Assembly: GCA_023382755.1 (NCBI GenBank) | Contig: JAHDWR010000001.1 | Span: 1-61,799 of the forward strand | Direction: 5' to 3' | From: Dehalococcoidia bacterium | GTDB lineage: Bacteria > Chloroflexota > Dehalococcoidia > Tepidiformales > Tepidiformaceae | DNA: 61,799 nucleotides | Part shown: positions 9,472-57,106 of the stretch, piece by piece | How the letters are laid out: every line of letters starts with the position of its first letter | Position numbering within the stretch: position 1 is the stretch's first letter | Made by a program: the position numbers and the translations under genes | Notes under the pieces: model-generated | What the model saw: only the letters and a program-made list of their open reading frames with translations | Database searches by the model: none | Told to the model about the DNA's origin: nothing

Positions 9472-9508
9472 CTCCTCATCGGTGTTTGAGGAAAGCGTGC
9501 TGGTCGCC

Positions 9509-9579
9509 GTTCCATGGGCGTTCCAGGATCGGGGCCGAGGCGTTCCAACTTCGGCCCTTCTGTTCGAAATCCGCTCCAA
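9509..9579 (-). promoter_or_regulatory. Array A: five phased heptamers (GTTCCAA family on the + strand, TTGGAAC in the sense of the downstream minus-strand operon)
   Basis: GTTCCAT 9509, GTTCCAG 9520, GTTCCAA 9542, GTTCGAA 9562, GCTCCAA 9573. Offsets are 11/22/20/11. The proximal copy is 38 nt from the prgI-like ATG. Spacer sequences are unrelated. Confidence 0.7.
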
Positions 9580-13529: not shown

Positions 13530-13612
13530 TTGGAACGAAACGAGAGCGAAATTGGAACAGACACCCCCCAGATTGGAATAGCCCCCTCCGAATCCTGGAA
13601 CGCTGAAGGAAC
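13530..13612 (+). promoter_or_regulatory. Array C: five phased heptamers (TTGGAAC family, sense orientation) upstream of the T4SS mating-channel operon
   Basis: TTGGAAC 13530, TTGGAAC 13552, TTGGAAT 13573, CTGGAAC 13595, AAGGAAC 13606. Offsets are 22/21/22/11. The array ends 51 nt before the ATG at 13663. Confidence 0.7.
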
Positions 13613-13662
13613 GCCAATTCGCAGTCTGACTCATCACGGCCTCCTGGCCGCTGGAGTCAGAT

Positions 13663-14895: not shown

Positions 14896-14904
14896 GAGGA
14901 CGCC

Positions 14905-16355: not shown

Positions 16356-16364
16356 GAGGCCGAC

Positions 16365-23433: not shown

Positions 23434-24081
23434 TTAGCGGCCCTCGCGGTGCGCGAAGGCAAGCCATCGGGCGCGCTGTTCGTCTGTCATCGTCGGGTCG
23501 CTGCGAACTGCTACGAAGAAGTCCTCCGGCTCCGCCAGTTCCGGCGCCCGCTCAGCGTGGTGCTGCGCCGCCGCGGCGAATGTCGGTCCCTGCTGTAGGT
23601 AGCGGGCGACGCTCTCAGTCTGGCGCTGGATCACCGCAGCGAGCACCTCGATCGCCTCGTGCGGAATCGACGCGTAGCGGATTAGCCGGCGATCGAGCTT
23701 ACGGAGTAGGCCGTCGCCGATTCCTGCGGCCCGGGCGAATTCGCGGGGCACGAGGCCGCGGGAGCGCGCTTCGGCCACGAGGCTCTCGAACGGCAGCAAC
23801 GCCGACGTCGAGGTCTGCGTCTGCGGCTGCTTATGCAGCAGGTTCTGGACGACGCTCATACCGCGCAGCACGAGGGTCTCCTCGTCGACCTCATCGGCGT
23901 CGAGTGCAGGCGGGAGTGACCTCATGAGGCTCCAGCTCGCCGCGAATTCGGTCAGCTCGTGCGTGTACTGCGGGTAACGACGAATCCACTCGGCCAGCAA
24001 TGGGCTCTCGGGACCGGCCCCGGACGCAATAAAAGCGTCGAGTACGTCCGCCAGGGTCTGACGCTCCTGTGGGTCGTTCAT
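23434..24081 (-). CDS. HTH-containing protein; putative XRE/ImmR-like partner of the downstream peptidase fusion
   Basis: GLVPREFARAAGIGDGLLRKLDRRLIRYASIP is HTH-like. The MNDPQERQ start (ATG at 24081) forms an ATGA overlap with the sigma-like gene stop. Confidence 0.5.
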   Translation of the reverse strand: MNDPQERQTLADVLDAFIASGAGPESPLLAEWIRRYPQYTHELTEFAASWSLMRSLPPALDADEVDEETLVLRGMSVVQNLLHKQPQTQTSTSALLPFESLVAEARSRGLVPREFARAAGIGDGLLRKLDRRLIRYASIPHEAIEVLAAVIQRQTESVARYLQQGPTFAAAAQHHAERAPELAEPEDFFVAVRSDPTMTDEQRARWLAFAHREGR

Positions 24082-25019
24082 CGTTGTTCTCCTCGCCATG
24101 TCTGTAGGGACTCTTCGGCCTTCTTAAGCCAGTTGCGGATGGTGCGGGGATCCTTGGCGAAATGCCGGCTGATCGTCCGCACCGCCGGGTCCTGGTGCTC
24201 GATCGGCCAATCGAAATAATGACGAAGCAGGAACGCAGAGCGGAAGGGCTCATCGATGCGACTCAGCGCGTCGCGGATCAGCGCGTCGTTGATCACGCCC
24301 ATCTCCCCAGAGGGCGACGTGACCGCGTCGTGGTCTCGCGGCCGTGCCACCCACTCAGGCTCCTCGTCGCCGTCGCGGTCGTAGCCGGGGAGCGAGGACA
24401 ACGACACCGCTGCCCGGTCGCGCTTATGCAGCGTGAGCTGCTGGTTGAACGCGCGGACGGCCAGCCTCTCCAAGGCCGGCCAGAACCGCACCTGGAGGAA
24501 GTCGCCGCGATTGCTGTCGAGGTCCAGGATCGGCGCGAACAGCCTCTCCACAACGTCGTTGTAGCCATCGCGTGCGGCCTCGCCGCCGAGCCGACTCAGG
24601 TGGCCGTCGATGAGCTTGGCGCAGCGGCGCAGCAGCGCCGCTGACAGGTCGCTCACGAGACCCGTTTCGCCCATGCGGTGGTAGTGCCGGATCAGGTAGA
24701 CCAGGCACTCCTCTTGGAGGTACTCGTCGCCTTCCGCGTCTGCTATCGTCACCCGCTCCAGAAGCGGCTCGGGCCGGAGGGCCAATGCTGCGGCGATCTG
24801 CTGCTCGACGGCCGAGTTGCGCTGGTACAGCTCATCGTCGGCATTGCGGTGGGTGAGGGGCTCGACAGGCCCGGGGCCATGCGACTGGCTGTCCTTCAAC
24901 GGCGCGGGTCCTCTCTGCGGCCCGTCCGGACGGGCCCTCATGCCTTCTAATACATCGCGCGCGCCGGGATCGGAAGGCATCAGCCGACGATTGCAGCGCC
25001 ATTCGGCGTGGCGTGGCAC
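24078..25019 (-). CDS. Sigma-70-family (ECF-like) RNA polymerase sigma factor homologue with a long linker between regions 2 and 4
   Basis: Region-2-like LQEECLVYLIRHYHRMGE. Region-4 LSRIDEPFRSAFLLRHYFDWPI...RTISRHFAKDPRTIRNWLKKAEESL. True start uncertain; several in-frame Met lie downstream of 25019. Confidence 0.55.
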   Translation of the reverse strand: MPRHAEWRCNRRLMPSDPGARDVLEGMRARPDGPQRGPAPLKDSQSHGPGPVEPLTHRNADDELYQRNSAVEQQIAAALALRPEPLLERVTIADAEGDEYLQEECLVYLIRHYHRMGETGLVSDLSAALLRRCAKLIDGHLSRLGGEAARDGYNDVVERLFAPILDLDSNRGDFLQVRFWPALERLAVRAFNQQLTLHKRDRAAVSLSSLPGYDRDGDEEPEWVARPRDHDAVTSPSGEMGVINDALIRDALSRIDEPFRSAFLLRHYFDWPIEHQDPAVRTISRHFAKDPRTIRNWLKKAEESLQTWRGEQR

Positions 25020-25487: not shown

Positions 25488-27728
25488 TCAGGTAGGCTCT
25501 GGTACCTGGCTAGAGCAAGCACAGGCTGTCGTAGTGCCAATCGCTTGTCTGTGCGGCCGACTACCGCGTCCCGCCTGGATCGCATCGGGGACAGCCGGCT
25601 CGTTGGATTCCGCGCAGGCGGTACTACGGACCTCGATCGACCGGATGCTCGCAGACGCCGGAAGGTGCCCTGGTGCGAGACCACCGGCGAACTCCTTCGA
25701 TCGCGAGTGCCAGAGGTTAAGGTTGAACTGAAGCGGCTGGTTGGGGATCGGCGTGGGATCCCACGTCATCCGTTCGTAGACGACCTCGCCTTCGACAAGC
25801 CAGCGGATCGTGTTCGGTAGCCAATCAATCTCGTACGTATGGAAGTCGGCGGCGGCGTCGAATCCGAGATCGACCAGGGTTGGCGTGCCGCGGTAGCCGT
25901 ATTCAAGCCTCGTGCCCACGGGCCCAGGGTTGTAGAACACGTTGACGAGCATCTTGCTGGTGTCTTTGCCGAGGAACTCGATGTCGATCTCTTGGCGGGG
26001 ACCGTTTCGGTGAAGGAACATACCGGTGATGAGTCCCGGTGCGCCGGACGGACGGAGTTCAGCCCTGAAATTGCCATAGCGATAGGAGACGCTGCTCGCG
26101 ATCGCTCCCGACGTGAGCTCGCGGACAGACGTCTGCTCCTGACGAAGAGTCAGCAGCGCGTGGCCTTCGTGCTGGCTGACGTTCGCTGGCGTGAACAGCG
26201 CCATGTTGCTCGGGAACGTGTCGTCGCGGAGTTTCCACGCTGAATCGTCGAGCTTGTCGCCGGAGGCCCAATCAACGCGCACAAATGACGTGCGCGAAGC
26301 GGGAGCCGTCTCGACGGCGACGCCGCGCCACTCGCTGTCTGGCCTCAAGATCCACGGCCCAATATCGGACTTCAGATTGGTTGAGTTCCGAGCGCTGTGC
26401 AATGGCATCCGCTGGCGAACGGCGCGGAAGCCACGTTCGCGGTCGGTCGGATACGGGAAGGCCGGATAGTCGGTGTTGAGGAACTCGCTGAGCGCCGCCC
26501 ACTTGTCCTGCACCTCAGGCGTGAACCGAAGGGCACGGTCGTGAACAGCAGGAGGCAGCACCTGATCCGCCGCCGTGCTGATGAACCAGGCGCTAGGAGA
26601 CGCCTTGGCGATCTGCTCGAGTACTTCGATCGAGAGCGAGCCAACGTTGACGTAGGCGTTGAACAACCGTCCTCGCTCTCCCCGGAGCAGACGCTGTCCT
26701 TCGGGTACTGGCAATCGGTCTAAGTCGCTACAGCAGGTGTAGCCGAGCATGGACAGTGCGACGGCAAGCGCGGTCAGTCCGGAGCCCTGTTCGCCAAAGG
26801 CAAGCACTGGCCCGGGCAGTCGCTTGGTCGTCGGCAAGAGCGGCTTCTCACGCGTAATAGCTCCCACTTGGGCGAGTACGGGCAGGACGGAGTATGAATT
26901 GGTGGACGGCTCATCGATACGCTGCTCGATGAGCGGACGTGCCGCGATGTACGCACGCAACCGTCTGAACTGCATGTTCAACCAGAGGTCGATCGGGCCG
27001 TAGACGGGCAGCGCATCGAGCAGTTTCCGCGCGCCTTCGCGACTCAGAACGTAGGCGGAGGCCTCCCATATGCCTGGTTGCTGCAGCCTGCGCGCGCCGT
27101 CCCCTTTGCGGACAGGAGAAGCGTTGCCGACCTCTTTGAAAGCCAGGTAGAGGAGGTCAAAGTCTGGCTCATCGGTCCCCGGGTGCGTAAGCGACGACCA
27201 TGTTGCCTCAAGATCGCGGGCGAAGCCGTAGGTCATGAATACGTCGTCTTCGAGCACCAGTGCACTGGGGACGTCGCCGTTGGCAATCAGCCTCCACACC
27301 TCGATGTGGGAGAGTGCCACGGCGACTTCTTGCTTGGTCATCTCGATCACACGAGCGCGCGAGTCGTCATCGATTCGTAGCAGCGGGTTCGGGTCAACGG
27401 TGAGCTGGTCAGCCAGTGTGAATCGCGGGATCAATACGGCTGGGCCAGGCGTCGCCTCCATATACCGTGAGTCAACGGCAGAGAACCGTCGGGCAATCGC
27501 CGATAGGCGTACATCGTTCCGGTCGCGAAAGCGGTCTAGTTCTCGCCTGACGCGCTGCCACCGGTCAGGTCGCCGGTCGAGGTTGATCACGTAGATGCGA
27601 CGCAACACACCGGGTTCGTTGCTGCGCGAGAACACGGCTGCGCGTCGGCGCCAGTCGAACACTCGGAGGCGAAGCCGCCCGTGATGAAGAAGACTCTGCC
27701 GGAAGTCCGCGGACGAGAGTTTGTTCAT
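25488..27728 (-). CDS. Multidomain glyco-enzyme: family-25 glycosyltransferase, a sulfotransferase-like middle region and a GH16 (concanavalin-like glucanase) domain; no signal peptide
   Basis: GT25 RRIYVINLDRRPDRWQRVRREL. Middle AFGEQGSGLTALAVAL. GH16 catalytic signature PRQEIDIEFLGKDTSK (ExDxE). Start MNKLSSADF (ATG at 27728) forms an ATGA overlap with the upstream gene. Confidence 0.65.
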   Translation of the reverse strand: MNKLSSADFRQSLLHHGRLRLRVFDWRRRAAVFSRSNEPGVLRRIYVINLDRRPDRWQRVRRELDRFRDRNDVRLSAIARRFSAVDSRYMEATPGPAVLIPRFTLADQLTVDPNPLLRIDDDSRARVIEMTKQEVAVALSHIEVWRLIANGDVPSALVLEDDVFMTYGFARDLEATWSSLTHPGTDEPDFDLLYLAFKEVGNASPVRKGDGARRLQQPGIWEASAYVLSREGARKLLDALPVYGPIDLWLNMQFRRLRAYIAARPLIEQRIDEPSTNSYSVLPVLAQVGAITREKPLLPTTKRLPGPVLAFGEQGSGLTALAVALSMLGYTCCSDLDRLPVPEGQRLLRGERGRLFNAYVNVGSLSIEVLEQIAKASPSAWFISTAADQVLPPAVHDRALRFTPEVQDKWAALSEFLNTDYPAFPYPTDRERGFRAVRQRMPLHSARNSTNLKSDIGPWILRPDSEWRGVAVETAPASRTSFVRVDWASGDKLDDSAWKLRDDTFPSNMALFTPANVSQHEGHALLTLRQEQTSVRELTSGAIASSVSYRYGNFRAELRPSGAPGLITGMFLHRNGPRQEIDIEFLGKDTSKMLVNVFYNPGPVGTRLEYGYRGTPTLVDLGFDAAADFHTYEIDWLPNTIRWLVEGEVVYERMTWDPTPIPNQPLQFNLNLWHSRSKEFAGGLAPGHLPASASIRSIEVRSTACAESNEPAVPDAIQAGRGSRPHRQAIGTTTACACSSQVPEPT

Positions 27729-28579
27729 GAGCCGTCCGCCTCTCCGTCGCCGCGCACCCAGTTCCTCCAGTTGCGCCCGTCGGCTCGGTATGCGAGCGGC
27801 CACTTGCTGACCGCCACAGCGTCCCAGCTCGTGAGCATCTCGAAGTCCCGCGCTTTGCCGTCCGCATGTTGTTGAGCGGCGTGACTCACCAGGCTTGCCG
27901 TGAGGTTGCCCGGCCCGGTCAGCGACTGCAGGTCACGGTTCGCTCTGTTTGCCGCGAGCAGGAGGGCCGTTGCGCGCTCCAGAGCTCTCGCTATCACCGG
28001 ATGCGCTGGCCCGGCGATGAGCGGGTTGTTGTTGACGTAGAAGATCCGCGCCGTGCCCGCGCTGTCCACTAGCGCACGCGCCACGTCGACCATCGAGTCC
28101 GACGCGATGTCGTAGCACAGTGGCTGGAGCCACAGTTGTCCGCTGCCAATCAGCGGCTCGACATCCGCTCCGCGATACTCGTCGTCGGCATCGACGTACA
28201 GTCCGCCGACTCGGAGCATAAAGCACAGCCGGAAGTAGTCAGCACGCATGGCGGGGTGGCTGCAGCGGGCGAAGGCCCGGACGTTCCGTTCGCTGAAGTG
28301 ATCCTCAATGAAGTGCCGCGCTGACGTGTCGTCGAACAGCGTCCGCTCGAATCCCGCAGCCTCAAGTTGTGCCCAGCTGTCCAGGCACTCCTGCACATCG
28401 TCGGGGATGGCTGAAGCGTCCCAGAACTGTACGAGTACCCGAGGCGTCGTGGGACGGCTGGCAACTTGGGATTCACCGCTCGACGCGGTGATGAGTTGTC
28501 GCATGAACTGCGACCTCAAGCTATCGTCTTCGGCGATTTCCGTGGGGGTGAGAGTTGGCGATGCTCGACGTGGGCTCAT
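27725..28579 (-). CDS. DXD-motif glycosyltransferase (OCH1/capsule-synthesis-like sugar-binding region)
   Basis: PRVLVQFWDASAIPDDVQECLDSWAQL and FRLCFMLRVGGLYVDADDEY. Confidence 0.65.
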   Translation of the reverse strand: MSPRRASPTLTPTEIAEDDSLRSQFMRQLITASSGESQVASRPTTPRVLVQFWDASAIPDDVQECLDSWAQLEAAGFERTLFDDTSARHFIEDHFSERNVRAFARCSHPAMRADYFRLCFMLRVGGLYVDADDEYRGADVEPLIGSGQLWLQPLCYDIASDSMVDVARALVDSAGTARIFYVNNNPLIAGPAHPVIARALERATALLLAANRANRDLQSLTGPGNLTASLVSHAAQQHADGKARDFEMLTSWDAVAVSKWPLAYRADGRNWRNWVRGDGEADGS

Positions 28580-45617: not shown

Positions 45618-48600
45618 CTAACGCGCGGCAGCTCTCGGCCCGGCCACTTGCTCCAGCACCTTCGTCGTCTCCGGCATCGGCTCCGCTCGCTCGTCATCGA
45701 GCGCCGCACGCAGATCCTCGATGAGCGTCTTGTACAGGCGTTTCGCGGAGTTCCGGTCGCCCGTCGCGGCGTGACACCGCATCGCTTCGCGCACGGCCTC
45801 CTCGTCGATGGGGTCCCTTTGCAGGACGGCGTCGTAGAAGCTAAGGGCGAGCTTCGGGTCACGCAGGTCACGCGCCAGCTTCGCGGCCCGGTGGGCTGCC
45901 GTGATGAACCGCTTCTGGTAGTCGCGCCGGTAGGCGTCGGCCCATTCGTAGTCTTCGTCGGCGAGGAAATCGGACGTGCAGAGTTCCAGCGCCCGCTGGT
46001 ACTCGACCAAGGCGTCAAAGCCCTGGAGGCGCTCGGCCCGCGCGAGATGTGCGTCGAAGGCGTCCACGTCTGTGCGGAAGATGCCTGTCCGAAGCGTGTA
46101 GCGCTGGCGCGCAGCGACGAGGATCTCGCCCTCGAGATCCGGGACTGCCCGGCTCAGGGTGCGACGGACGTAGTAGGCGGCGTTGGGCAGCGGGTGCCCT
46201 CCCTGGTTCTCTCCGCTTAGCCCGAGTGCCTCTGCTGCCGTATCTCGCAGGACCGGCGAGCCGCCGTGGGCGAGAAGGTAGGCGAGCAGCTCCCGCGCCT
46301 TCTGGATCGACCAGCCATCGACCTCTCCGGCGTCTGTCTCGACACGGAACGTCCCAAAGAGACGCGCCCGGAACACGGGACCATCCTCGCTGTCCGACTC
46401 CCCGTCGGTGCCATCGAGCGGGAGCGATGCCTGTCTGTCCGCGGACTTGGGAGGCATGGCGTCCGGCTCCTCGAGAACCCTCACCGCCTCTTCCGGATGG
46501 GTCTCGTTCCACGATAGAGGGGCTGCCAGATCGGTGGCATCAGTGGACGCGTAGCCGTCCGCGAACCGTTCTTCGTCGATCTCCGGCCAGGTTTCCGATG
46601 GGGCGTGGCCGTTGTGAGGTGCTGACGATGTCGGGGACTCGGGCGTCGCAGGCACGGGCGTTGCCGTATTCGCGCGAGGGCGGTGCGCAACCTGCCGCCG
46701 GACCACGACAGGCTCCAGGTGGAGCGGAGGCAGCTGAGGCGGGGTCAGCGTGATCATGCCGGGCTCCCCGGACTGCTCGCCTTCGCCGAAGACCACACTG
46801 GCTCCGAAAGAATGCCGCGTGTCGGCGGCCTCGACCAACTCGGCGAAGGCGATCACGAAGATACCTCGCCCTGGACCCTGCCGAAGGATGCCTTCCATCT
46901 CAGCAACGGTGCTGGCTGGCTCGGGGTTCGGCCCTACCAGCGTCAGGAGCGCAGGCGCTTCCTGGTCCCCCTCGCGCGCGAACAGCATGCTCTCGAGCCA
47001 TCGGGCGAAGGCCGCAGGCGAGTCCGCGGGCGGACCGGCGTCGGCTGGACCTGGCAACAGCCCCAGGCAGTCGCTGAGGGAAGCCCCCGCAGCCTCGTCC
47101 GCGACTGCGGTGATCGTGCCTTCTGGATGGAGCGAATCGAGGGTGGCGAACCAGCTCGTGAGGAGGTCGCGTCCCTCCAGCCGTCCACCAACGACGAGGA
47201 CGCTGCCGACGGCTGCGAGGTTGAGGTAGTGGATGCCGGAATCCGAAGCACCGACCGGCACGAGGAGTGGCTGATGGCTGTCGCCTGTATCACCGAGGAG
47301 CGCCGCCGCCAGCTGATTCATGCGCGAGAGCTTCAGCCGGACGGCCGTCGCCCCCAGGAGCTCGCCATCGACGGCGCATCCGAGCTGGCGGCCGAGTGCG
47401 TAGCGAGATTCGACCAGCGCCTCGGCATCGCCAGGCGGGCAGTCGAGCGTGAACTCCAGGTAACGGTCGGATTCGCGGGCGAGGACGATGGCCGTGGCGG
47501 CGAAATCAAGCTCCGCCAGTGCCGACAGGAGCGCGGTACTCGTCGCCAGCACGCGGGCCGCATCGCCGGACCCTGCTGGCCGGCGTTCGGGGCGTCCGTT
47601 GGAGTGCCAGGCCCGGCGCCGCGCTCGTCGAAACACCAGCAGCATCGCCGCCCCACCGACCGTTATCACGGCTGCCGCGGCCACGACTCCACCGCCGGGT
47701 GTCGGCACCGATGGCAGGGAGGGCCGAAGCTCCGGCCCGGCGCCGTCGTCATCCGCTGGAGCGATGGGGCCACCCGGGATCACCGTGGGTGTTGGCGTGG
47801 GGACGACCGCTGTGGGTTCCGGGGTCGGTGGAACAGGGGAGGGTTCGGGCGTCGGTTCCGGCTCCGGCGTCCCACCGGGGCCGTCGGCCTCGGTGACGGA
47901 TTCTGGCTCAGCGTTGCTGACGTCCTGCGGAAGTTCCAGCTGCCAGCCGGCATAGATGAGATTCGGGTCCACGAAGGTCCGTCCATCCGTCATCGTGCGC
48001 TGCTGGTTGAGCTTCCAGATCTCGACCCAGCGAAATCCGTCGCCGAGGAAGCGTTCCGCGATGCCCCAGAGGTGGTCGCCTCGCGCCACGGTGTAAGTAT
48101 CAGGGACGGTTTCCACCGCCACCGCTGGCGCGGCCGTTGACGGGACGGTGGCCGGTTCGGCGAACACAGCCACGTGTCTCTCAACCGGCGCCTCGACGCT
48201 TCTGCTGATCGGGGCCGCGGCTGCGATCGCAGCCGACGGCATGTGGAACGTGGCACTGACCAGGATCGTCCCGGCGAGGGCGCCATCGACCACACGGCGT
48301 ACAAGCGGGAGCGTCAGCGGGGCGGTGACGCGAAGCCCGCCCCTTGCCCATGCTGCCTGATCCGTGAGGACGGCGGCCAGGCCGAACGCGAGCCGTACCA
48401 CGATGGACAGCAGCAGGTACGCCACCACGAGCCAGGCGATGCCGGTCGTCACCGTGATGACGTCCTGGTCGCTCAGCCGGGAGCCAGTCAATACGGTCTG
48501 GATATGACTCCAGTCCGGCGTCGAGGCCAGCATGCTGGGTGGCCCGGTCATCGCCCAGAGGCCAATCGCGACCGCGATGCACGCGGCCACCAGCGCGACC

Positions 48601-48662
48601 AGGCCGAGCCATCCTCCGTCCGCCTCTTGTCCTCGACTGGTCGCGAGCTCGCGTGTACTCAT
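45618..48662 (-). CDS. Membrane-anchored LysM protein with a C-terminal SARP module (OmpR-type winged helix plus BTAD)
   Basis: N-terminal TM helices (GWLGLVALVAACIAVAIGLW, IAWLVVAYLLLSIVVRLAFGLAAVL). LysM YTVARGDHLWGIAERFLGDGFRWVEIWKLN...IYAGWQLELP. Pro-rich tract, then TM VVAAAAVITVGGAAMLLVF followed by RRARRR. SARP RARLFGTFRVETDAGEVDGWSIQKARELLAYLLAHGG...YVRRTLS...DVDAFDAHL...YEWADAYRRDY...LQRDPIDEEAVREAMRCHAATGDRNSAKRLYKTLIEDL. Confidence 0.75.
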   Translation of the reverse strand: MSTRELATSRGQEADGGWLGLVALVAACIAVAIGLWAMTGPPSMLASTPDWSHIQTVLTGSRLSDQDVITVTTGIAWLVVAYLLLSIVVRLAFGLAAVLTDQAAWARGGLRVTAPLTLPLVRRVVDGALAGTILVSATFHMPSAAIAAAAPISRSVEAPVERHVAVFAEPATVPSTAAPAVAVETVPDTYTVARGDHLWGIAERFLGDGFRWVEIWKLNQQRTMTDGRTFVDPNLIYAGWQLELPQDVSNAEPESVTEADGPGGTPEPEPTPEPSPVPPTPEPTAVVPTPTPTVIPGGPIAPADDDGAGPELRPSLPSVPTPGGGVVAAAAVITVGGAAMLLVFRRARRRAWHSNGRPERRPAGSGDAARVLATSTALLSALAELDFAATAIVLARESDRYLEFTLDCPPGDAEALVESRYALGRQLGCAVDGELLGATAVRLKLSRMNQLAAALLGDTGDSHQPLLVPVGASDSGIHYLNLAAVGSVLVVGGRLEGRDLLTSWFATLDSLHPEGTITAVADEAAGASLSDCLGLLPGPADAGPPADSPAAFARWLESMLFAREGDQEAPALLTLVGPNPEPASTVAEMEGILRQGPGRGIFVIAFAELVEAADTRHSFGASVVFGEGEQSGEPGMITLTPPQLPPLHLEPVVVRRQVAHRPRANTATPVPATPESPTSSAPHNGHAPSETWPEIDEERFADGYASTDATDLAAPLSWNETHPEEAVRVLEEPDAMPPKSADRQASLPLDGTDGESDSEDGPVFRARLFGTFRVETDAGEVDGWSIQKARELLAYLLAHGGSPVLRDTAAEALGLSGENQGGHPLPNAAYYVRRTLSRAVPDLEGEILVAARQRYTLRTGIFRTDVDAFDAHLARAERLQGFDALVEYQRALELCTSDFLADEDYEWADAYRRDYQKRFITAAHRAAKLARDLRDPKLALSFYDAVLQRDPIDEEAVREAMRCHAATGDRNSAKRLYKTLIEDLRAALDDERAEPMPETTKVLEQVAGPRAAAR

Positions 48663-49600
48663 TGCCGCTGCCCCGTCAGCACGGACTGGAGCTGCTGGAC
48701 CGGGTAGTCATCACTGAACAACCGGGTGATCGGGTCGAGCGGTTCCCACGCGCCGCCGTTGACGCGGTACCGGGCCGCGAATGTGACCTCCACCGTGATG
48801 CTGTAGGCGCCGCCGGCCGCCAGCGACGACTGTTCATAGACGTGGCGGATGTCGCTCTCAGCGGGATAACGCTGCCCGAGTGATGTCGTCTCAGCGGTCG
48901 TCCCATCGCCGAAGGACCAGCGGTAGACCAGCGGCTCGATCTCCACGTCAACCGTGACACCGGGAAGCGCGTCCGATGAGCTGATGGCCGAGCCGTCGTA
49001 GCCATCGATCCAGAACCAGGACGACAGTGCGACGAGACCGGTCGCCGGGTTGGCTTCGATGGCGATATCCGGGATTGGGAGATGGTTAAGGAGTTCGAGG
49101 GCGACGGCCACCGGGTCCACGCCGTCTTCGTCAACGAAAACCACCTGGACGTTCCCGCCAGCTGGCGTGCCCACCGGAATCCAAATGAAAGCGAAGAAGC
49201 CGTCATCGCAGCTCACGCTGCCGAAGACGTGGTCGGGATGAGCTGCCTGCTCAGCCTGGTACCAGGAAGAGTTCGAGAGCACGATTCCGATGTTCTGAGC
49301 GCTGATGCGGCAGGAGCGCGAGTTGCCGGTGCTGACCGACGTATTAGAAGTTGAACCCGGTGCACTTCCCGGCGACGCTTGCGTCACGCGGATGAACACC
49401 GTTACGCCATTCGGTCCAGACTGCACCGTGGCGGCTGCCGTTTTGGAATTGCTGCGAGGCGTTCCGGCACCACCCGGAGTCGGGTCGTCCGCCAGCACGG
49501 CCAGGGGAACGACGAGAGCCAAAGCCGCGGCCGCCAGGCACACCAACCACCTGCGAGTGCCCCGGGCTAGTTCTGCCTGATGCTCCGGATGACTATCCAT
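48659..49600 (-). CDS. Secreted protein with a C-terminal PKD-like domain
   Basis: Signal-like RRWLVCLAAAALALVVPLAVLA. PKD-type motif YRWSFGDGTTAETTSLGQRYPAESDIRHVY. Confidence 0.55.
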   Translation of the reverse strand: MDSHPEHQAELARGTRRWLVCLAAAALALVVPLAVLADDPTPGGAGTPRSNSKTAAATVQSGPNGVTVFIRVTQASPGSAPGSTSNTSVSTGNSRSCRISAQNIGIVLSNSSWYQAEQAAHPDHVFGSVSCDDGFFAFIWIPVGTPAGGNVQVVFVDEDGVDPVAVALELLNHLPIPDIAIEANPATGLVALSSWFWIDGYDGSAISSSDALPGVTVDVEIEPLVYRWSFGDGTTAETTSLGQRYPAESDIRHVYEQSSLAAGGAYSITVEVTFAARYRVNGGAWEPLDPITRLFSDDYPVQQLQSVLTGQRQ

Positions 49601-50109
49601 TGTCCATCAACCTTTTCGAGGAAGAACGTGTCGACCAGGGTCTCACCGCTGCCTTCGCCTTCCGGAGGCTCATGAGTCTCGGGATCCACGTAGAAGCTGT
49701 TGTTCGTCATCTCGTCGAACACGGTAGCCGTCGTGTCCGTCAGCTCGATGACGGTTGGTCGATGCTCAATCACGACACGGAGCGCAACGCCCTGTGCACG
49801 AAACGTCTCTATCTCCTCCTTCACCTGCTGCAGTTCCTCCTCTGACGCCGCCCCCATGAGGACACTGTGGTCGAGATTCAGAACGGCTTCGGCGTAGAGA
49901 TCCCAGTAACGGAGATAGGCCGCGATCACCTCTGCCTCGGTGCCCGGAGTGGCGGTCGGCTGCGAAGCGGTCGGGTTGGCCGTTGGCGAGGTGATGGTGG
50001 CGGTCGTGGTTGGCGGAGATTCGTCATCGCTACCACCGCAGGCTGCCGCGAGCATCAGCGCGCTCCAGCCGAGCGCCAAAGCAATGCCAACCGTCCCGTT
50101 CATGCACAT
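49567..50109 (-). CDS. Lipoprotein (lipobox LAAC), possibly with an NTF2-like fold
   Basis: MCMNGTVGIALALGWSALMLAAACGGSDDE; C-terminus ...FFLEKVDGQWIVIRS. Confidence 0.55.
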   Translation of the reverse strand: MCMNGTVGIALALGWSALMLAAACGGSDDESPPTTTATITSPTANPTASQPTATPGTEAEVIAAYLRYWDLYAEAVLNLDHSVLMGAASEEELQQVKEEIETFRAQGVALRVVIEHRPTVIELTDTTATVFDEMTNNSFYVDPETHEPPEGEGSGETLVDTFFLEKVDGQWIVIRSIRQN

Positions 50110-50114
50110 GCCTC

Positions 50115-50546
50115 CTACGGTCCCGCCGTCTCGACGCCGTAGCGTGGTTCTGCGGACGCGCTGGCGCTCACTTCGACGCCATCGATGCCGATGACACGGA
50201 GGAACCCGGTCGTTGCTTGCCTCGACACCGAGACCTCCACCCGGTCCGGCAGGACGTTGACGACGTAGTCAAGACCACCTTCGGCGTCCAGGTAGAGCAC
50301 GGCCGCATCGCGGGCCAGCTGTTCGTCGATGACCACTTCACCGGTCGAGCGGTAGGCGGCCTCGTCTATTTGCATCGCTCCGGCGGCCGCGGCAGCGTCG
50401 GCGACGTTCTGGAGGTCGCGCCGCTGCGCGAACACCAGCCCGCCATCGGAGACGAGCCCGACGACGCTCACGACGCCAACCATCATCAGCGCGACCATCA
50501 CGAGCACCTGGCCCTCTTCACCGTGCAGCCGGCGGACGACGTTCAT
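50115..50546 (-). CDS. TadG-like/Tad_N pseudopilin-type protein
   Basis: GEEGQVLVMVALMMVGVVSVVGLVSDGGLVFAQRRDLQNVADAAAAAGA. Confidence 0.65.
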   Translation of the reverse strand: MNVVRRLHGEEGQVLVMVALMMVGVVSVVGLVSDGGLVFAQRRDLQNVADAAAAAGAMQIDEAAYRSTGEVVIDEQLARDAAVLYLDAEGGLDYVVNVLPDRVEVSVSRQATTGFLRVIGIDGVEVSASASAEPRYGVETAGP

Positions 50547-50992
50547 CGCGCAGCTACCTCCCGGCTCCGGTAGATGTCGATCCGCTCCGAGTGGCTGGCG
50601 CCCACGTCTACATCGAAGAAACTCAACAGCGGCAGGTCGGAGAGCGACACGTTGTAGCGGACTTCGGACATCACGGTTCCGCCACGGGCGAAACCACCGG
50701 AATCGACCTCGACAGTGAGCCGGTCGCTGTCGAGTCCGTAGCCATCGGCGACGTTCTCCCCGACCGTCAGCGCATCCGCGATGCCCTGCTCTTCTGAGGG
50801 CGCGACCGCCAGCGCCCTGCTGGACTCTCGGGCAGCTGCCTGCACCGCAATCTTCGCCTCGACCACGCGGCCGGCCGCGACCACCCCGAAGACGAGCACG
50901 AGTAGGACCGGAATCGCGAGCGCCGCCTCGACGAGCGCCTGCCCGGACTCACCAGCTGCCTCCTGCGTGTCCATGCGGAGTCTACGGACCAC
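50543..50992 (-). CDS. TadE-like pseudopilin
   Basis: ESGQALVEAALAIPVLLVLVFGVVAAGRVVEAKIAVQAAARESSR. Confidence 0.7.
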   Translation of the reverse strand: MVRRLRMDTQEAAGESGQALVEAALAIPVLLVLVFGVVAAGRVVEAKIAVQAAARESSRALAVAPSEEQGIADALTVGENVADGYGLDSDRLTVEVDSGGFARGGTVMSEVRYNVSLSDLPLLSFFDVDVGASHSERIDIYRSREVAAR

Positions 50993-51404
50993 TGCGGAAG
51001 CCCTCCTTCCGCATTTCCGCCGCGGCGTCGATCGAGATAGTCTGGTTGGCCAGCCACGGGATGATGAGCGGGTAGCCGCCGGTGGTGGTCACGGTGATCC
51101 ACTCATCCGAGTCCTCGGCCGTCACGGCGAACCCATCGCCGACGCCTCCAAGCCCTGACCGCAGGACATCCAGCGTCCGCGCCTCGGCGGCCACGGCGTC
51201 GCCATCTTCGGCCGCACCGAGCCGGGCGCCTTCCTGGGCCGCCGTCGTCGCGACATTCTGCGCGTGGTGGACCAGCGCGAACTGGACGACCCCGATCAGC
51301 ACGAGGAGAAGCAGCGGGAGCACGAGCGCGAACTCGACCATGCTCTCGCCCGCCTCACCGGTCGCGGGCGACCGGTGCCCGCGCCTAGATGCCAGCCAGT
51401 TCAT
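50982..51404 (-). CDS. TadE-like pseudopilin; start uncertain and overlaps the flp 3' end
   Basis: GEAGESMVEFALVLPLLLLVLIGVVQFALVHHAQNVATTAAQEGAR. Confidence 0.65.
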   Translation of the reverse strand: MNWLASRRGHRSPATGEAGESMVEFALVLPLLLLVLIGVVQFALVHHAQNVATTAAQEGARLGAAEDGDAVAAEARTLDVLRSGLGGVGDGFAVTAEDSDEWITVTTTGGYPLIIPWLANQTISIDAAAEMRKEGFRSGP

Positions 51405-51561
51405 CAGTGATGCTCTCGAAGACGTCGACAACACCGCCGCCGAGAGTCTCGACCGCGGTGAGGGCTACCACTGCGATGAGCGCAGTGATAAGGGCGTACT
51501 CCACCATCGACTGGCCACGTTCGTCGGTGCGTAAGGCGAGGATGCGTCGGAGCAGCTTCAT
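51385..51561 (-). CDS. flp: Flp-family type IVb pilin; 58 aa, below the ORF-track cutoff
   Basis: My own translation gives MKLLRRILALRTDERGQSMVEYALITALIAVVALTAVETLGGGVVDVFESITDELAGI. It has the Flp motif G/xxMVEYAL. ATG at 51561, stop at 51385-51387. Confidence 0.8.
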   Translation of the reverse strand: MKLLRRILALRTDERGQSMVEYALITALIAVVALTAVETLGGGVVDVFESITDELAGI

Positions 51562-51589
51562 GAGGTTCTCCTTTCTGCGTGGCCTCGTC

Positions 51590-52534
51590 TCAGTCGCTCA
51601 GCCCGAGCAGCTGCACGCCTGCCGGGTAGAGCAGGACGACGAGGAAGACGGGGAAGATGAAGAGGGCGACCGGGAAGAGCATGCGGACGCTGCTCTTCTC
51701 CCCCTCGGCGATAAGGGTGGTGCGCTTCCGCTCTCGCACGGTGTCGGCGAGCGTCAGCATCACCTGACCCAGCGGCAGCCCCTGTTCGAGCGCCGACTGC
51801 CAGGCGTCGGCCATCGAGACGATCTCCTGGACGCCCTCGCGTGCAGCCAGCGCCCGCAGCCCCTCCGGGTGGGTCATGGTGCCGAGCCCCGCCTCGCGGG
51901 CGACGTTGCGAAGGCCCTCGCCGAGGACGCCCTTCATTTGCCGGCTCACGTCCAGGAGCGCCTGCTCCGGAGACAGTCCGGCACTGGCCGCCATCGCGAG
52001 CAGGTCGAGGACGGTCGGCAATTCCATCAGGACTTGTTGGCGTCGGCGCGCGACGCGCCGCTCCAAGAGCACATCAGGCTGGATGAAGCCGAGGAACCCA
52101 CCGGCCAGCCAGGTCCAGATCGGCCAGGGCCCGAAGGGATGCAGGCCCACGAGATTGAGGGCCGGGAAGCAGGCGAAGAAGAGGAGGCCAACGGCCAGCT
52201 TCTGCCCGAAGAACTGGCTGGGCGTCATCCCCGGCCAGCCGACCGCTAGGCGCTGTTCGAGGTCGGCCATCCGCACGCCCAGGCGCGCCAGCAGCCGGCC
52301 AACCAGCCTGCCTGCGTCGTCCAGGACGGGGCGCAGCGTCCGCTCCAACGCCGGCGAAACGAACATCGATGGCCCCGCCTGCAGGCGCTCAGCTTCCATC
52401 TCGATCCGCCCCTGGGCCGACAGGCGCCGCAGCTCGAATGCCAGGTCCGGCCTGCGCCGGGCCCACGGCAGGCTCGTGACCACGAGCCAGAGCCCAAGAC
52501 CGAAGAGCCCGGCGACCGCCAGCCCCGCCGTCAT
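51590..52534 (-). CDS. tadC: TadC (type II secretion F-family inner-membrane platform protein)
   Basis: LPTVLDLLAMAASAGLSPEQALLDVSRQM...LPLGQVMLTLADTVRERKR; C-terminal TM LFPVALFIFPVFLVVLLYPAG. Confidence 0.75.
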   Translation of the reverse strand: MTAGLAVAGLFGLGLWLVVTSLPWARRRPDLAFELRRLSAQGRIEMEAERLQAGPSMFVSPALERTLRPVLDDAGRLVGRLLARLGVRMADLEQRLAVGWPGMTPSQFFGQKLAVGLLFFACFPALNLVGLHPFGPWPIWTWLAGGFLGFIQPDVLLERRVARRRQQVLMELPTVLDLLAMAASAGLSPEQALLDVSRQMKGVLGEGLRNVAREAGLGTMTHPEGLRALAAREGVQEIVSMADAWQSALEQGLPLGQVMLTLADTVRERKRTTLIAEGEKSSVRMLFPVALFIFPVFLVVLLYPAGVQLLGLSD

Positions 52535-53388
52535 TGCAGCACCCGCTCTTCACCCGGCAGACGGGTCGCCCGGAGCATCCCCGCGTAGCCGACGGCGACG
52601 CTCAGGAGGCAGAGCGCGAGGACCCCCTGCCCCTCCGCCGACGAGAACACGTCCAGGTAGTCGGGGTTGAGGCCGCGGATGACGAGGATGAGGGCCAGGG
52701 GCAGCGCGGCGATGATCCGCGCCGAGAGGACGTTCTTGGCCTGGTGAGCGCGGAGCTCCTGCTCGACCTGGATGGTCTGCCGCACGGAGCGGCTGAGCGC
52801 CTCGAGAACGGTGCTGAGGTTGCGGCCGCCGACCCGGTGCGACATCAGTAGTGCAGCGGCGACCATGTCGAAGACGGGATCGGCAATCCGCTCGCGCGAG
52901 CGTCGGATCGCTTCTTCGAAGCCGCTGACCCGGAGGTCGCGGGCAAGGTCAGTCAGAGGTGGACGGAGCACCTCCGGCCCGTTCCTGGCCAGCGACGCCA
53001 GCGCCTCCTCGACACTCATCCCGGCGCGCACGGCCGAGCGCAGCGAATCGACGGCCTCCGCGACGGCCGACTGCATCGTTGTCCGCTCGCGCTGATGGCG
53101 GTTGGTCAGATACCAGGCGGGCAGCGTGACACCGAGGAGGAAGGCGGCGGCGCTGACCATCGGCCAGCCAAGAGCCAGCTGGCCGGCAAGGGCAAGGGCC
53201 ATCCCCGTTGCTGCACTCAGGAGGATGAAGTCGCGCACGCCGACCTGCCCCGCGTTATTCCGGTCGAGGAAGGCCCGGAGCGTCGAGCGCCGCGGCTGCT
53301 CCTGGCGCGCCGGCGCCCAGCGCGTGGTCGCCGAGAGGAAGACCAGGAGCAGTCCCACGGCGAGGGTGAGCGACAGGATCAGGGGCAT
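52531..53388 (-). CDS. tadB: TadB (type II secretion F-family platform protein)
   Basis: MPLILSLTLAVGLLLVFLS...AVDSLRSAVRAGMSVEEALASLARNGPEVLRPPLTDLARDL...VGGRNLSTVLEALS. Start ATG at 53388 preceded by GGGAGG; the track extension to 53652 covers the repeat array and is implausible. Confidence 0.75.
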   Translation of the reverse strand: MPLILSLTLAVGLLLVFLSATTRWAPARQEQPRRSTLRAFLDRNNAGQVGVRDFILLSAATGMALALAGQLALGWPMVSAAAFLLGVTLPAWYLTNRHQRERTTMQSAVAEAVDSLRSAVRAGMSVEEALASLARNGPEVLRPPLTDLARDLRVSGFEEAIRRSRERIADPVFDMVAAALLMSHRVGGRNLSTVLEALSRSVRQTIQVEQELRAHQAKNVLSARIIAALPLALILVIRGLNPDYLDVFSSAEGQGVLALCLLSVAVGYAGMLRATRLPGEERVLQ

Positions 53389-53424
53389 CGGACACCTCCC
53401 GAGCACCCCATCCTGCCTGCCGTA

Positions 53425-53557
53425 GTTCCAATTCCGTTCCAACATCCGCGCCCATTCGTTCCAATCCGGGCCCGTTCGTTCCAACTTCGTTCCAATCGCT
53501 GGCGCGGCGACGCGATCCGTTCCGATCTCGCTCCAAAGGCGATGCTCATCGCTCCAA
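53425..53557 (-). promoter_or_regulatory. Array B: eight phased GTTCCAA-family heptamers in the cpaF-tadB intergenic region
   Basis: GTTCCAA at 53425, 53436, 53458, 53478 and 53489. GTTCCGA 53519. GCTCCAA 53530 and 53551. Offsets are 11/22/20/11/30/11/21. The proximal copy is 37 nt from the tadB ATG. The first four offsets are identical to array A. Confidence 0.75.
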
Positions 53558-54856
53558 CCCCCGCCGATTGCCGTCCAGACTGGCGCCGACTGGGGTGGGA
53601 GCGCGATCCAGCCGGTCCCATGGGAACGCCCCGCCATGCAGCCGGGCAGCAAAGCGCGGGCGAATGCCGGTCCAGCGCAGCGCGCCTTCGCTGAGGCCGA
53701 AGAGGTCGCTGCCGGCTACGGTGTCGCCTTCGAGGCCCGTCACTTCGTAGACGTTCGTGACGACCCGGCGGGCGCCGGCCGGGTCCAGGCGGAGGTGGAC
53801 CACGAGGTCGATCGCTTCCGCGATCATCTCGGTCACTGCCTCGGCGGGCAGCGCCTCCTCGGCCATCATCGCGTACATCCGCAGCTTCGAGAGCGCCTGG
53901 CGCGGGCCGTTGGCGTGGATGGTGCACATCGAGCCTTCGTGCCCGCTGTTCATCGCGGCGAGCATGTCGAGCGCCTCCGCGCCCCGGACCTCACCGACGA
54001 TGATCCGGGTCGGGCGCATGCGCAGAGCGTTCTTCACCAGGCTGCGGATTGGGAAGGCGCCGGCCCCCTCGACGTTTGGCAGCCGGGCCTGCAACGCCAC
54101 GCAGTCGGGGAGGGTCCCCTCAAGGTGGAGTTCGCCCGTCTCCTCGATGGTGACGACCCGCTCCTCCGTCCCTGCGATGGAAGCGCCCAGGGCGTTGAGG
54201 CAGGTTGTCTTGCCGCTGCCGGTCCCGCCCGAGATGAGGATGTTGAGACCCGCCTCGACTGCTGCTTCGAGGAAGGCAGCCGCTTCCTCCGGGAGCGTGT
54301 CGAGCGCGACGAGGTCGGCCAGGCTGCGCGCCCGGAGCAGGAACTTCCTCACGGTCACGTGCGTGTAGCGCGTGGTCAGCGGCGGGATGATAGCGTTCAG
54401 GCGTGAGCCGTCTGGCAGACGCGCGTCCACCAGCGGGCTGGTCTCGTCGAGCCGGCGTCCCAGCCGGCCGACCGCCCGGCGGACGACCCGGAGCAGGTCG
54501 GCGTCGTCTTCGAAGACCACGTCGGTCAGGCGCTTCTGGCCGCGCTCGATGACGAACGTCCTGTGCGGGCCGTTGACGATGATCTCTTCAATTCCGGCGT
54601 CGTCGAGCAGCGGCTGGAGCGGGCCCAGCCCGAGGATCTCGTCGACCAGCCGGTTTGCAAGGCCTTCCGGGTCGGGCAGCGGCGATTCTCCGACCGAGGC
54701 CGCGCGGTGGTTGGCGGCATCGACCAGCCTGCGCACCACCTGCCGGACCTCATCGTGCTCGTCGGCAAGCGCGTCGAACTCGACGACGCGCCGCAGCTCC
54801 TCCCGGACCTCGTCGCGGAGCGTCTGCTCGAGCCGGGATGCGGCCGGGTTGGCCAT
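53546..54856 (-). CDS. tadA: CpaF/TadA secretion ATPase
   Basis: Walker A ILISGGTGSGKTTCLNAL, VVTIEETGEL, RIIVGEVRGAEALDML, GHEGSMCTIHAN. Start MANPAASRLE (54856). Confidence 0.85.
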   Translation of the reverse strand: MANPAASRLEQTLRDEVREELRRVVEFDALADEHDEVRQVVRRLVDAANHRAASVGESPLPDPEGLANRLVDEILGLGPLQPLLDDAGIEEIIVNGPHRTFVIERGQKRLTDVVFEDDADLLRVVRRAVGRLGRRLDETSPLVDARLPDGSRLNAIIPPLTTRYTHVTVRKFLLRARSLADLVALDTLPEEAAAFLEAAVEAGLNILISGGTGSGKTTCLNALGASIAGTEERVVTIEETGELHLEGTLPDCVALQARLPNVEGAGAFPIRSLVKNALRMRPTRIIVGEVRGAEALDMLAAMNSGHEGSMCTIHANGPRQALSKLRMYAMMAEEALPAEAVTEMIAEAIDLVVHLRLDPAGARRVVTNVYEVTGLEGDTVAGSDLFGLSEGALRWTGIRPRFAARLHGGAFPWDRLDRAPTPVGASLDGNRRGLER

Positions 54857-54857
54857 G

Positions 54858-56096
54858 TCACCGCCTCCCCTCGGCCGGCTGGCGGCGCCAGCGGCGCAGC
54901 GCGGACACTTCTTCGGCGGTGGATTGCGCTTCGACGTCACCGGCGCCGGCCAGTCGCGAGGCCAGCTCGGCGATGGTGCGGGCAGCCTTCCCTCCGGCTG
55001 TGATGATTGGGGTCTGGTCCGCCCGCGCGCGCCGCGCTGCCCGCACGTCCTCGGGGATTGCGGCGACCACGCGGATCCCGAGGGCCCGCTCCACCTCCGG
55101 CGCGCCGTAGTGATCGCGTCCGGTGCGACGGTTGACGATCGCGGAGACGGCCTCCGCTGGGACGCCCAGCGACTCGGTCACGAACCGCAACGAAGCACGG
55201 GCATTCCAGAGCCCGAGCAGGTCGGCCGTCGTCACCAGCAGGACGCGCTCGGCCGAGCTGAGGAAGGCTGTTCCGACCGCCGACGTGACGCCGCTGAGGG
55301 TCTCGCCGGCGTCGATGAGGATGACGTCGAAACGCTCCTGCAGCGCGGAGACTGCCCCGGCGATGCGCTCCGGCGCCAGGCGCTCCTGAGCTTCAGGACG
55401 CTCGACACCGGTGAGGATGGAGAAGCCCAGTCCATCCTGGAGCTCGTCGAGAACACGCTCCGGTCGATCGATCGGCCCGGCGCTGAGCCCTGACAAACCA
55501 CGGCGTGGATCGAGGTCGAGGTAGGGGCCAATGGATCCGCCGCGGAGGTCGCCGTCGACCAGCACGATGCTCCTCTTGCTCGCGCCCAGGGTGGCGGCGA
55601 GACCGATGGCAACGGTCGTGGTCCCGGGTGCCCCTTTCCCGCTGACCAGAGCGATGACTTCACCGTCTCCCAGGTAGCCGTGTTCGCCCCGTTCGGGCGT
55701 CGAGAGCCCGTCCGTTGCGACTTGGCTAACCACCGCGCCACGGCGGATGGCCTCATGCAGTGCGGCTATGACGACCGGTCCGTCGCTGGCTGCTGGGAGC
55801 ACGTACGAAAGCCCGGCGTAGGCCTCCGCCTCCGTGGGCCCTGCGAGGAGGACCATCGGTACGCCTGCCTCCCGCACGGCAATGAACGACTCGCCTGTCA
55901 GTCGGTGCAGGCCTGCCGAAGCGAGCACCGCATCGACATTCCCGGCGATCGCCTGTTGAACGAGCGAGGGGCCGTCGAGGCAGCGTCCGGCAATGGTGCA
56001 CCCGCCGTCGCGCAGCGCGGTCAGGAGTTGCCGCTCGCGCTCGGGGTCGCCGATGGCGAGGAGGACACGTGGCGGCCGGTCGCTGGCGTCGCTCAT
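54858..56096 (-). CDS. tadZ: TadZ/CpaE-like protein (receiver-like N-domain plus ParA/MinD-type ATPase)
   Basis: RVLLAIGDPERERQLLTALRDGG...; deviant Walker A VIALVSGKGAPGTTTVAIGLA; VLVDGDLRGG. Confidence 0.75.
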   Translation of the reverse strand: MSDASDRPPRVLLAIGDPERERQLLTALRDGGCTIAGRCLDGPSLVQQAIAGNVDAVLASAGLHRLTGESFIAVREAGVPMVLLAGPTEAEAYAGLSYVLPAASDGPVVIAALHEAIRRGAVVSQVATDGLSTPERGEHGYLGDGEVIALVSGKGAPGTTTVAIGLAATLGASKRSIVLVDGDLRGGSIGPYLDLDPRRGLSGLSAGPIDRPERVLDELQDGLGFSILTGVERPEAQERLAPERIAGAVSALQERFDVILIDAGETLSGVTSAVGTAFLSSAERVLLVTTADLLGLWNARASLRFVTESLGVPAEAVSAIVNRRTGRDHYGAPEVERALGIRVVAAIPEDVRAARRARADQTPIITAGGKAARTIAELASRLAGAGDVEAQSTAEEVSALRRWRRQPAEGRR

Positions 56097-56803: not shown

Positions 56804-57106
56804 CGCCACGGATCGGTCTCCGTCTGCACCTGAGCGACCCCTGCACTGTGACTCCAGGGAGCGCCCTGGTGCCCGCCAGAGTGCCATAACGGGCGACCCC
56901 GCGAGGCCAATCTTTTCCCGGCGTTAAAGAGATCGCAACGTCCCGGGCGAGAATTTACAACCGTTTCACAATCCTGCCGCAGCCGTTTTTCAAGGGTTAA
57001 GGAGGCACGCTTGCGACGGGGTTTAGGGGCTCCCGAAGATCTCGCCTGGAGCGGTCTCACCGCGCCCCGGCAGGGCGGAACCGGTCTCACAAGCCGTGCG
57101 AGTCCA

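Follow-up and report, generated by a model that had tools for sequence, protein, structure and literature searches.

The window analysed here, by which we mean the whole stretch of 61,799 nucleotides from a Dehalococcoidia bacterium, is an integrative conjugative element (ICE) with a monoderm-type type IV secretion system (T4SS), a large defence cargo and a tad module at its right side. It was recognised as such because a tyrosine recombinase and an Xis-like gene accompany transfer operons; the recombinase gene (minus strand) runs off the left end of the window and adjoins the Xis-like gene. The ICE transfer module (1-16601) comprises this recombinase, the Xis/HTH_17 gene (1003-1338), a Replic_Relax relaxase with a MarR-like N-terminus, a coupling protein, a primase, VirB4, a TrsD-like protein and PrgI, and, divergently oriented, TrbL, an NlpC/P60-SLT protein and a T4SS pilin. 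Between the putative divergent T4SS promoters lies a pair consisting of an AAA_15 ATPase and a UvrD-type helicase (10132-13428), Gabija-like by domain content. The defence-type cargo, at 16981-45614 between the T4SS and tad modules, includes a Prok-JAB protein, DUF7665, a 1150-aa M78-UvrD-PD(D/E)XK fusion, HEPN_Swt1-DUF499, NADAR-DUF1156, PRTase-CE, a 1398-aa sacsin-like protein, an SNF2 helicase with NOV_C, and Hypoth_Ymh; at 25488-27803, also in the cargo, an unusual 771-aa protein, in which a family-25 glycosyltransferase is fused to a family-16 glycoside hydrolase, stands beside a DXD glycosyltransferase. In two related loci (L009, L144) the tad module adjoins the T4SS pilin gene, the cargo being absent between them. 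Plasmid searches with the tad DNA and VirB4 returned no close relative (best VirB4 identity, 37%).

In the tad module, the genes of the cpaB-tadZ-cpaF segment, of which tadZ encodes a ParA/MinD-type ATPase, precede those from tadB onward in Table 1. No convincing terminator was found in the tadC-to-PKD-like stretch, and the last gene of the operon overlaps the preceding one by 4 nt. Between cpaF (TGA 53548-53546) and tadB (ATG 53388) there is a gap of 157 bp, which holds most of a repeat array referred to here as array B. A separate, conserved AT-rich promoter-like block without heptamers lies ahead of cpaB-tadZ-cpaF; at 56950-57010 (minus sense) it consists of CCTTAACC, two bases, TGCAAAA/TTGAAAA, about 30 nt and GTAAAAT/GTAAATT. 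This block was seen in nearly all orthologous loci and may be the site of a separate regulator. A GCAGGAT match upstream of cpaB in the window was rejected, as it is not conserved in the orthologues; the conserved feature of that region is the AT-rich block.

Table 1. Features of the tad module and of the two T4SS-side arrays (positions in the window)
Feature	Position	Strand	Remarks
Sister array upstream of PrgI-VirB4-primase-T4CP-relaxase	9494..9579	-	Five copies 9509-9579, offsets 11/22/20/11, 9 nt, CACGCT 9499-9494
Sister array upstream of TrbL-NlpC/P60-T4SS pilin	13530..13627	+	Five copies 13530-13612, offsets 22/21/22/11, 9 nt, CAGTCT 13622-13627
1014-aa predicted membrane protein, LysM (190-245) and C-terminal SARP module; proposed activator	45618..48662	-	Last operon gene
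Predicted SARP domain (OmpR-type winged helix and BTAD), residues 760-1014	45621..46385	-	AlphaFold2 model, Foldseek, homologues
tadC, flp pilin, two tadE, tadG-like, 180-aa protein, PKD-like protein	48659..52534	-	Tightly packed or overlapping, same direction
tadB (T2SSF)	52531..53388	-	First gene behind array B
Shine-Dalgarno GGGAGG (53400-53395) and tadB ATG (53388-53386)	53386..53400	-	
-10-like hexamer CAGGAT	53410..53415	-	9 nt past last heptamer; 8 bp past 8-bp unit
Proximal core, five exact copies	53425..53495	-	Offsets 11/22/20/11; architecture as in PrgI-side array
Array B, eight TTGGAAC-type heptamers (five exact, three one-mismatch)	53425..53557	-	cpaF-tadB gap
cpaF/tadA ATPase (T2SSE)	53546..54940	-	Upstream of array B; longest-ORF start

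Exact GTTCCAA copies begin on the plus strand at 53425, 53436, 53458, 53478 and 53489, and one-mismatch copies at 53519 (GTTCCGA), 53530 and 53551 (GCTCCAA), giving start-to-start offsets of 11/22/20/11/30/11/21. The sequence-only reading had described exactly these eight heptamers, and their coordinates and counts were re-found; its statement that they read TTGGAAC in the tad sense also holds, all eight copies being on the plus strand and the tad genes on the minus strand. Its account of the gap was likewise confirmed by the stop and start coordinates, with the proximal copy ending 36 nt ahead of the tadB ATG and the eighth copy sitting in the last codons of cpaF. In the tad sense most units read TTGGAACG, and this 8-mer is the conserved unit within the 11-bp repeat.

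Array B is non-random and helically phased. Within 133 bp, eight heptamers with at most one mismatch share a strand; when the window was simulated 100 times under a first-order Markov model, the count never exceeded four. Exact heptamers number 11 in the window against 3.6 expected. Helical phasing reaches R = 0.937 at 10.5 bp, which places all eight copies on one face of the helix (P ~6e-5 for random phases, the 10.5-bp period having been chosen out of six tried); the offsets 20, 21 and 30 are 1-3 bp off exact multiples of 11. Searches of the cpaF-tadB gap found no sigma-70 consensus promoter, no terminator and no Rfam family, the sole Rfam match (TLS-PK1, 18.7 bits against a gathering threshold of 80) lying outside the gap on the opposite strand, and the RNA fold of the gap was no better than that of shuffles (z = +1.36). 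A coding reading of the gap, in which the tadB frame is open to 53652, was rejected: the Shine-Dalgarno sequence and the ATG are conserved, and an 11-bp period is not a multiple of three. Plasmid iterons or centromere repeats (parC/parS-type) were rejected as well, because no rep or par genes lie beside any of the three arrays of the window and because each array stands at a fixed register upstream of an operon start.

All the TadB relatives found among genome assemblies come from MAGs of Chloroflexota, which bear the labels Dehalococcoidia, Thermoflexaceae or Anaerolineaceae. They share the gene order from CpaB through the LysM-BTAD gene, and their flanks differ. The actinomycete-like setting implicit in the sequence-only reading is therefore not the one found: the relatives belong to the Chloroflexota, and the element is an ICE that carries arrays at its type IV secretion operons too. 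Thirteen tad loci of the TTGGAAC type were compared (the window, ten genome loci, L181 and L182), and the array is kept in 13/13 with an identical register to the tadB ATG. Absence of the motif from orthologous tad loci had been named beforehand as grounds for abandoning the idea; none of the orthologues examined lacks it, and in all of them the register is the same and the spacers have diverged. Counted from tadB, copies 1-6 are kept in 12-13 of the 13 loci, copy 7 in nine and copy 8 in six, so that copy 8 and, in part, copy 7 are poorly kept. Comparison of the loci thus makes six copies with a proximal core of five (11/22/20/11) the well-supported element. In this core, pairwise identity over the 13 loci is 94.5% in heptamer columns versus 69.0% in spacer columns, and the GCAGGAT past the last heptamer is invariant in 12 sequences (the window and eleven orthologous loci).

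Variant arrays were found in four more distant tad loci. In one of these (L009, TadB 81-82% identical) the architecture is unchanged and TAGGAAC serves as the unit; in the other three (L011-L013, TadB 67% identical) the gap is short and holds TTGGAC units at 11-bp spacing, with CAGCAT in register and two further units within the cpaF coding end. Two genomes of the TTGGAAC group deserve separate mention. A Dehalococcoidia MAG (L182, a 2.7-Mb contig) carries a decaying tad module in which the cpaF, tadC and LysM-SARP genes are frameshifted or truncated; it retains most heptamers, with one unit mutated and the hexamer reading CAGGGT. The MAG Thermoflexaceae H3_CFX4 holds three tad-module copies (L002, L006 and L010), all with TTGGAAC arrays and near-identical SARP recognition regions, and because both arrays and recognition regions are alike, cross-talk between these co-resident copies is possible.

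A position-weight scan of the 61.8 kb returned exactly three arrays, with 18 sites altogether, and one weak two-site pair within a gene, at chance level. The two sister arrays (Table 1) precede, respectively, the operon encoding PrgI, the TrsD-like protein, VirB4, primase, coupling protein and relaxase, and the genes for TrbL/VirB6, the NlpC/P60-SLT hydrolase and the T4SS pilin. In all three arrays the units are in sense orientation, and a CANNNT hexamer stands 9 nt past the last of them; once the offset has been fixed at one array, the chance of a CANNNT match is ~0.0095 at each other array. A motif-blind scan of the window for this geometry picked out the putative tadB and PrgI promoters only, shuffled sequences giving a mean of ~0.45 matches. 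On this sequence evidence array B would be one of three arrays that define an ICE-wide regulon.

The arrays are also retained upstream of TrbL and PrgI in metagenome relatives of TrbL, and in three related elements (L136, L139, L142) the two T4SS arrays are only ~3.4 kb apart. In more distant TrbL relatives the heptamer is replaced by TTGGACC, CTGGAT, TTGGAGA, CCTGAGC or CGGAAC, the units recurring at lags of 11 and 33 (some 22) with CA..CT 9 nt past the last unit. A heptamer that varies between element lineages within a constant architecture argues for a regulator encoded by the element over one encoded by the host, and the conservation pattern, as read from these alignments, is that of a cis-regulatory site with a protein partner that is encoded by the element and evolves with it. 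T4SS loci with arrays have no SARP gene within 10 kb save for two (L144, L145), an outcome that is uninformative rather than supportive. A scan of viral contigs with TTGGAACNNNNTTGGAAC (14 specified bases) gave, among the matches listed, unrelated contigs and no usable match.

The candidate partner is the product of the last operon gene, which is the only OmpR-type DNA-binding protein found among the main ORFs and gaps of the window. Pfam recognised LysM at residues 190-245 and BTAD at 864-1005 (E = 4.9e-10) in this 1014-aa protein and no Trans_reg_C, even at E <= 10, and phmmer against the PDB with the C-terminal 255 aa returned designed TPR proteins only. Homologues at 56-67% identity, however, have both Trans_reg_C (PF00486) and BTAD (PF03704), and the winged helix was assigned through these homologues and the predicted structure. 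The AlphaFold2 model of residues 760-1014 (22 sequences, pLDDT 92.9) shows two strands, three helices and a hairpin in the OmpR-type arrangement, followed by an all-helical BTAD. Its top six PDB matches in Foldseek were AfsR (8k60, 8hvr) and EmbR (2fez, 2ff4), with TM 0.73-0.75 over 251-262 aligned columns, and its only strong matches were AfsR, in transcription initiation complexes, and EmbR, in both cases over the full length. The sequence-only reading had already placed a SARP domain in this protein, and the modelling bears it out in that a full SARP fold is predicted, of which Pfam detects just the BTAD half.

Hydropathy analysis predicted transmembrane segments at about residues 17-38, 70-100 and 325-345, with RRARRR after the last; because of these segments and the RRARRR that follows 325-345, LysM is predicted to be extracellular and the SARP module cytoplasmic. 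The module occupies residues 760-1014 of 1014, past the transmembrane segments and LysM, and not the N-terminus of a soluble protein. The middle domain of ~400 aa (residues 360-759) has only six homologues, and its AlphaFold2 model (pLDDT 40.2) was unusable. At E < 1e-30 the LysM-SARP family comprises 53 clusters at 50% identity; most full-length members span 860-1190 aa and end in the SARP module, and all eight sampled full-length members have both LysM and a C-terminal BTAD. Wherever a locus extends far enough to tell, the LysM-SARP gene and the tad array occur in synteny. The recognition-helix region pairs with the heptamer group as HPLP/TTGGAAC, HLLP/TAGGAAC, HQLS/TTGGACC and HQGA/TGGAY, a correspondence that covers four lineages only, and in L008-type proteins the helix is altered and the heptamer unchanged. 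Further SARP homologues added no new specificity group, giving TTGGAAC again (L181, L182) or coming from an indel-ridden contig (L179).

Other DNA-binding candidates encoded in the window were considered less likely. A 313-aa protein (24078-25019) with a weak sigma-70 region 4 / ECF-like C-terminus, whose gene overlaps that of a 221-aa protein of unknown family (23434-24099), belongs, with this neighbour, to the cargo region and has no counterpart in any of the related loci retrieved, nor does the neighbour. For the Xis-like HTH_17 protein and the MarR-like N-terminus of the relaxase, the expected roles are in excision and at oriT.

SARP target promoters have direct repeats spaced at 11 or 22 bp, the 3' one standing 8 bp away from the -10. 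Their -35 is poor, and afsS has CACTGT as its -10 (PMC10936776). Two AfsR protomers sit side by side, each touching the first 8 bp of an 11-bp repeat, and the characterised SARPs are activators (PMC10936776). Array B reads TTGGAACG-N3-TTGGAACT, 8 nt and CAGGAT, and so fits the SARP rule unit for unit; the sister arrays and the diverged elements show the same distance between their last unit and their own hexamer. Both the position and the conservation of CAGGAT point to it as the putative -10. The internal regulated promoter for tadB and the genes behind it that the sequence-only reading had proposed thus gains support from comparative evidence, namely the conserved array and a hexamer at the SARP position.

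We therefore put at roughly 60% the probability that array B serves as the operator in an internal promoter (PtadB) that depends on an activator, and that it is bound by the predicted SARP domains of the 1014-aa protein; the binding, the activation and the start of transcription are what we infer from the sequences and the model. The SARP domains would line up next to one another along one face of the DNA, each on an 8-bp TTGGAACG unit. The proximal pair of units, spaced at 11 bp and with the last of them 8 bp from CAGGAT, would replace the -35 and recruit RNA polymerase, and the upstream units would contribute cooperative or avidity binding. PtadB would then drive tadB-tadC-flp-tadE-tadE-tadG and the gene of the activator itself, so that a positive feedback (autoregulation) would result, and the same protein would switch on both type IV secretion operons of the ICE through the sister arrays. 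Basal expression of the operon, including the activator gene, would come from read-through from the AT-rich PcpaB. The membrane-tethered SARP module would have to meet DNA at the membrane or be released by cleavage, and LysM may sense a signal. Against this reading stand that tethering, the offsets that are not exact multiples of 11, the failure of direct Pfam and PDB sequence searches to detect the winged helix, the L008-type change of helix at a constant heptamer, and the actinobacterial plasmids that have a LysM-BTAD gene and no such arrays. A broader and more tentative proposal, which we regard as possible and rather doubtful, is that the membrane-tethered LysM-SARP proteins, as a widespread family, would form the master switch of monoderm mobile elements combining Tad with a T4SS. 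Its extracytoplasmic peptidoglycan-binding domain would report cell-wall or cell-contact status, its cytoplasmic SARP would bind phased heptamer arrays and so turn on the Tad pilus and the conjugation channel and, in a positive feedback, the gene that encodes it, and diversification of the heptamer would insulate co-resident ICEs from one another.

Several other explanations of the array have to be set against binding by the SARP domains. The same operator-promoter might be bound by another direct-repeat regulator, such as an OmpR/PhoB-family response regulator of the ICE or of the host. OmpR/PhoB-type proteins do bind phased 11-bp direct repeats that replace the -35, the pairing of SARP and site is one that we infer, and the T4SS loci with arrays mostly lack a SARP gene within 10 kb; yet searches of the 61.8-kb window turned up no receiver-domain protein and, besides the SARP, none of OmpR type, the heptamer varies between close element lineages, as would not be expected of a host regulator, the 8-bp distance to the hexamer is the SARP rule, and the SARP gene is always syntenic with the tad array, all of which makes this explanation unlikely. 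That the arrays are binding platforms without a promoter role, either as a repressor operator or as a membrane tether (centromere-like or for sequestration) with the membrane-anchored protein as the anchor, would suit a protein predicted to be embedded in the membrane, the ParA/MinD-type nature of TadZ and a total number of sites far above the two needed for contact with RNA polymerase. We nevertheless judge it improbable, as the units of all three arrays stand in sense orientation just upstream of operon starts at a fixed 9 nt from CANNNT, as this geometry remains constant across lineages with other heptamers, which a promoter needs and a tether does not, and as the characterised SARPs are activators.

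The repeats could alternatively act in the mRNA, through binding of a CsrA-type protein or through a structure that controls tadB translation or transcript processing: they always lie on the sense strand, contain GGA and would be transcribed by read-through from cpaF, with no terminator intervening. Phasing at 10.5 bp, however, belongs to duplex DNA, the RNA does not surpass its shuffles in folding and matches no Rfam family, the unit becomes CCTGAGC or TTGGACC in diverged elements with the register to the hexamer kept, and two of the arrays lie upstream of the first genes of divergent operons, so that action in the mRNA is very improbable. Least credible of all is a functionless tandem repeat, expanded neutrally by slippage or left by a mobile insertion. 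Tandem Repeats Finder does report an imperfect array of 11-bp period and a 20-bp duplication in array B, but over the 13 loci the heptamers are conserved and the spacers diverged, two unlinked arrays of the window share one architecture, the register to the hexamer is conserved, and a spacer identity of 69% argues against recent copies of one sequence.

For the regulation of conjugation in monoderms outside the Firmicutes, and for that of Tad pili on mobile elements, the proposed circuit would offer a concrete model in which one named candidate activator recognises an 8-bp unit at three promoters. An architecture with LysM outside and SARP inside suggests a coupling of the transfer genes to some signal from the cell envelope, and the SARP mechanism, familiar from actinomycete antibiotic clusters, would extend to Chloroflexota mobile elements. 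For the LysM-BTAD gene with which Tad operons end on actinobacterial plasmids, that of C. acnes among them, the proposal also suggests a plausible role, and the lineage-specific heptamers may serve as natural specificity variants for SARP-DNA recognition. In a full-text literature search, no paper was found that ties SARPs or LysM-BTAD proteins to Tad pili, T4SS or ICEs, nor one on membrane-anchored SARPs.

Among known systems, pho boxes (PhoB/PhoP) are arrays of 11-bp direct repeats that overlap the -35 and can be extended upstream in multiple units, and they depend on a receiver-domain response regulator and its kinase. Array B shares the arrays of 11-bp direct repeat units; unlike in PhoB/PhoP systems, no receiver-domain regulator or kinase is encoded here and the heptamer specificity changes between lineages. 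In regulators of the ToxR type (ToxR, TcpP, CadC), a single transmembrane segment joins a cytoplasmic winged helix at the N-terminus to a periplasmic sensor domain, and BTAD is absent. The LysM-SARP protein would resemble them, by analogy only, as a membrane-held OmpR-type winged helix with an extracytoplasmic domain and direct repeats upstream of its targets, whereas its winged helix and BTAD are C-terminal, after several predicted transmembrane segments, LysM and a domain of ~400 aa. With the domain order inverted and several transmembrane segments present, the resemblance to the ToxR class is functional only.

The tad module also has the gene order of Tad operons on actinobacterial plasmids (SAF/CpaB, TadZ, TadA, TadB, TadC, Flp, TadEs and a LysM-BTAD protein of ~950-1130 aa). 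A LysM-BTAD gene lies at or near the end of the Tad operon in C. acnes pIMPLE (PAGK_2369), Micrococcus luteus (NZ_CP043850) and Nonomuraea (NZ_CP107854); PAGK_2369 is labelled TadB in a table of the C. acnes paper (PMC3666418), and the literature searched reports no function for the plasmid LysM-BTAD protein. Unlike the 157-bp gap seen here, tadA and tadB abut or overlap on these plasmids, and a search for phased heptamer arrays over 24-28 kb of the actinobacterial plasmid tad loci found none.

The closest likeness in cis is to the actinomycete SARP promoters (AfsR/afs box at afsS; ActII-ORF4, DnrI, RedD), with which array B shares some 7-8 conserved bases per 11-bp unit, the 11/22-bp spacing and, if CAGGAT is taken as the putative weak -10, a 3' repeat 8 bp from a CANNNT hexamer with no usable -35, and, as in the actinomycete systems, the candidate regulator, with its predicted SARP fold, is encoded in the same cluster. 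It departs from them in having six to eight units instead of two or three, in serving the Tad pilus and conjugative T4SS operons of an ICE instead of antibiotic clusters, in its Chloroflexota as opposed to actinomycete host, and in a SARP module that is C-terminal on a 1014-aa LysM membrane protein and not N-terminal on a soluble one, as it is in small SARPs and in large SARPs with C-terminal NOD/TPR. The cis element has, at the level of sequence, the features of a SARP operator-promoter, and its candidate regulator is predicted to have the SARP fold, set in an architecture other than the canonical N-terminal, soluble one.
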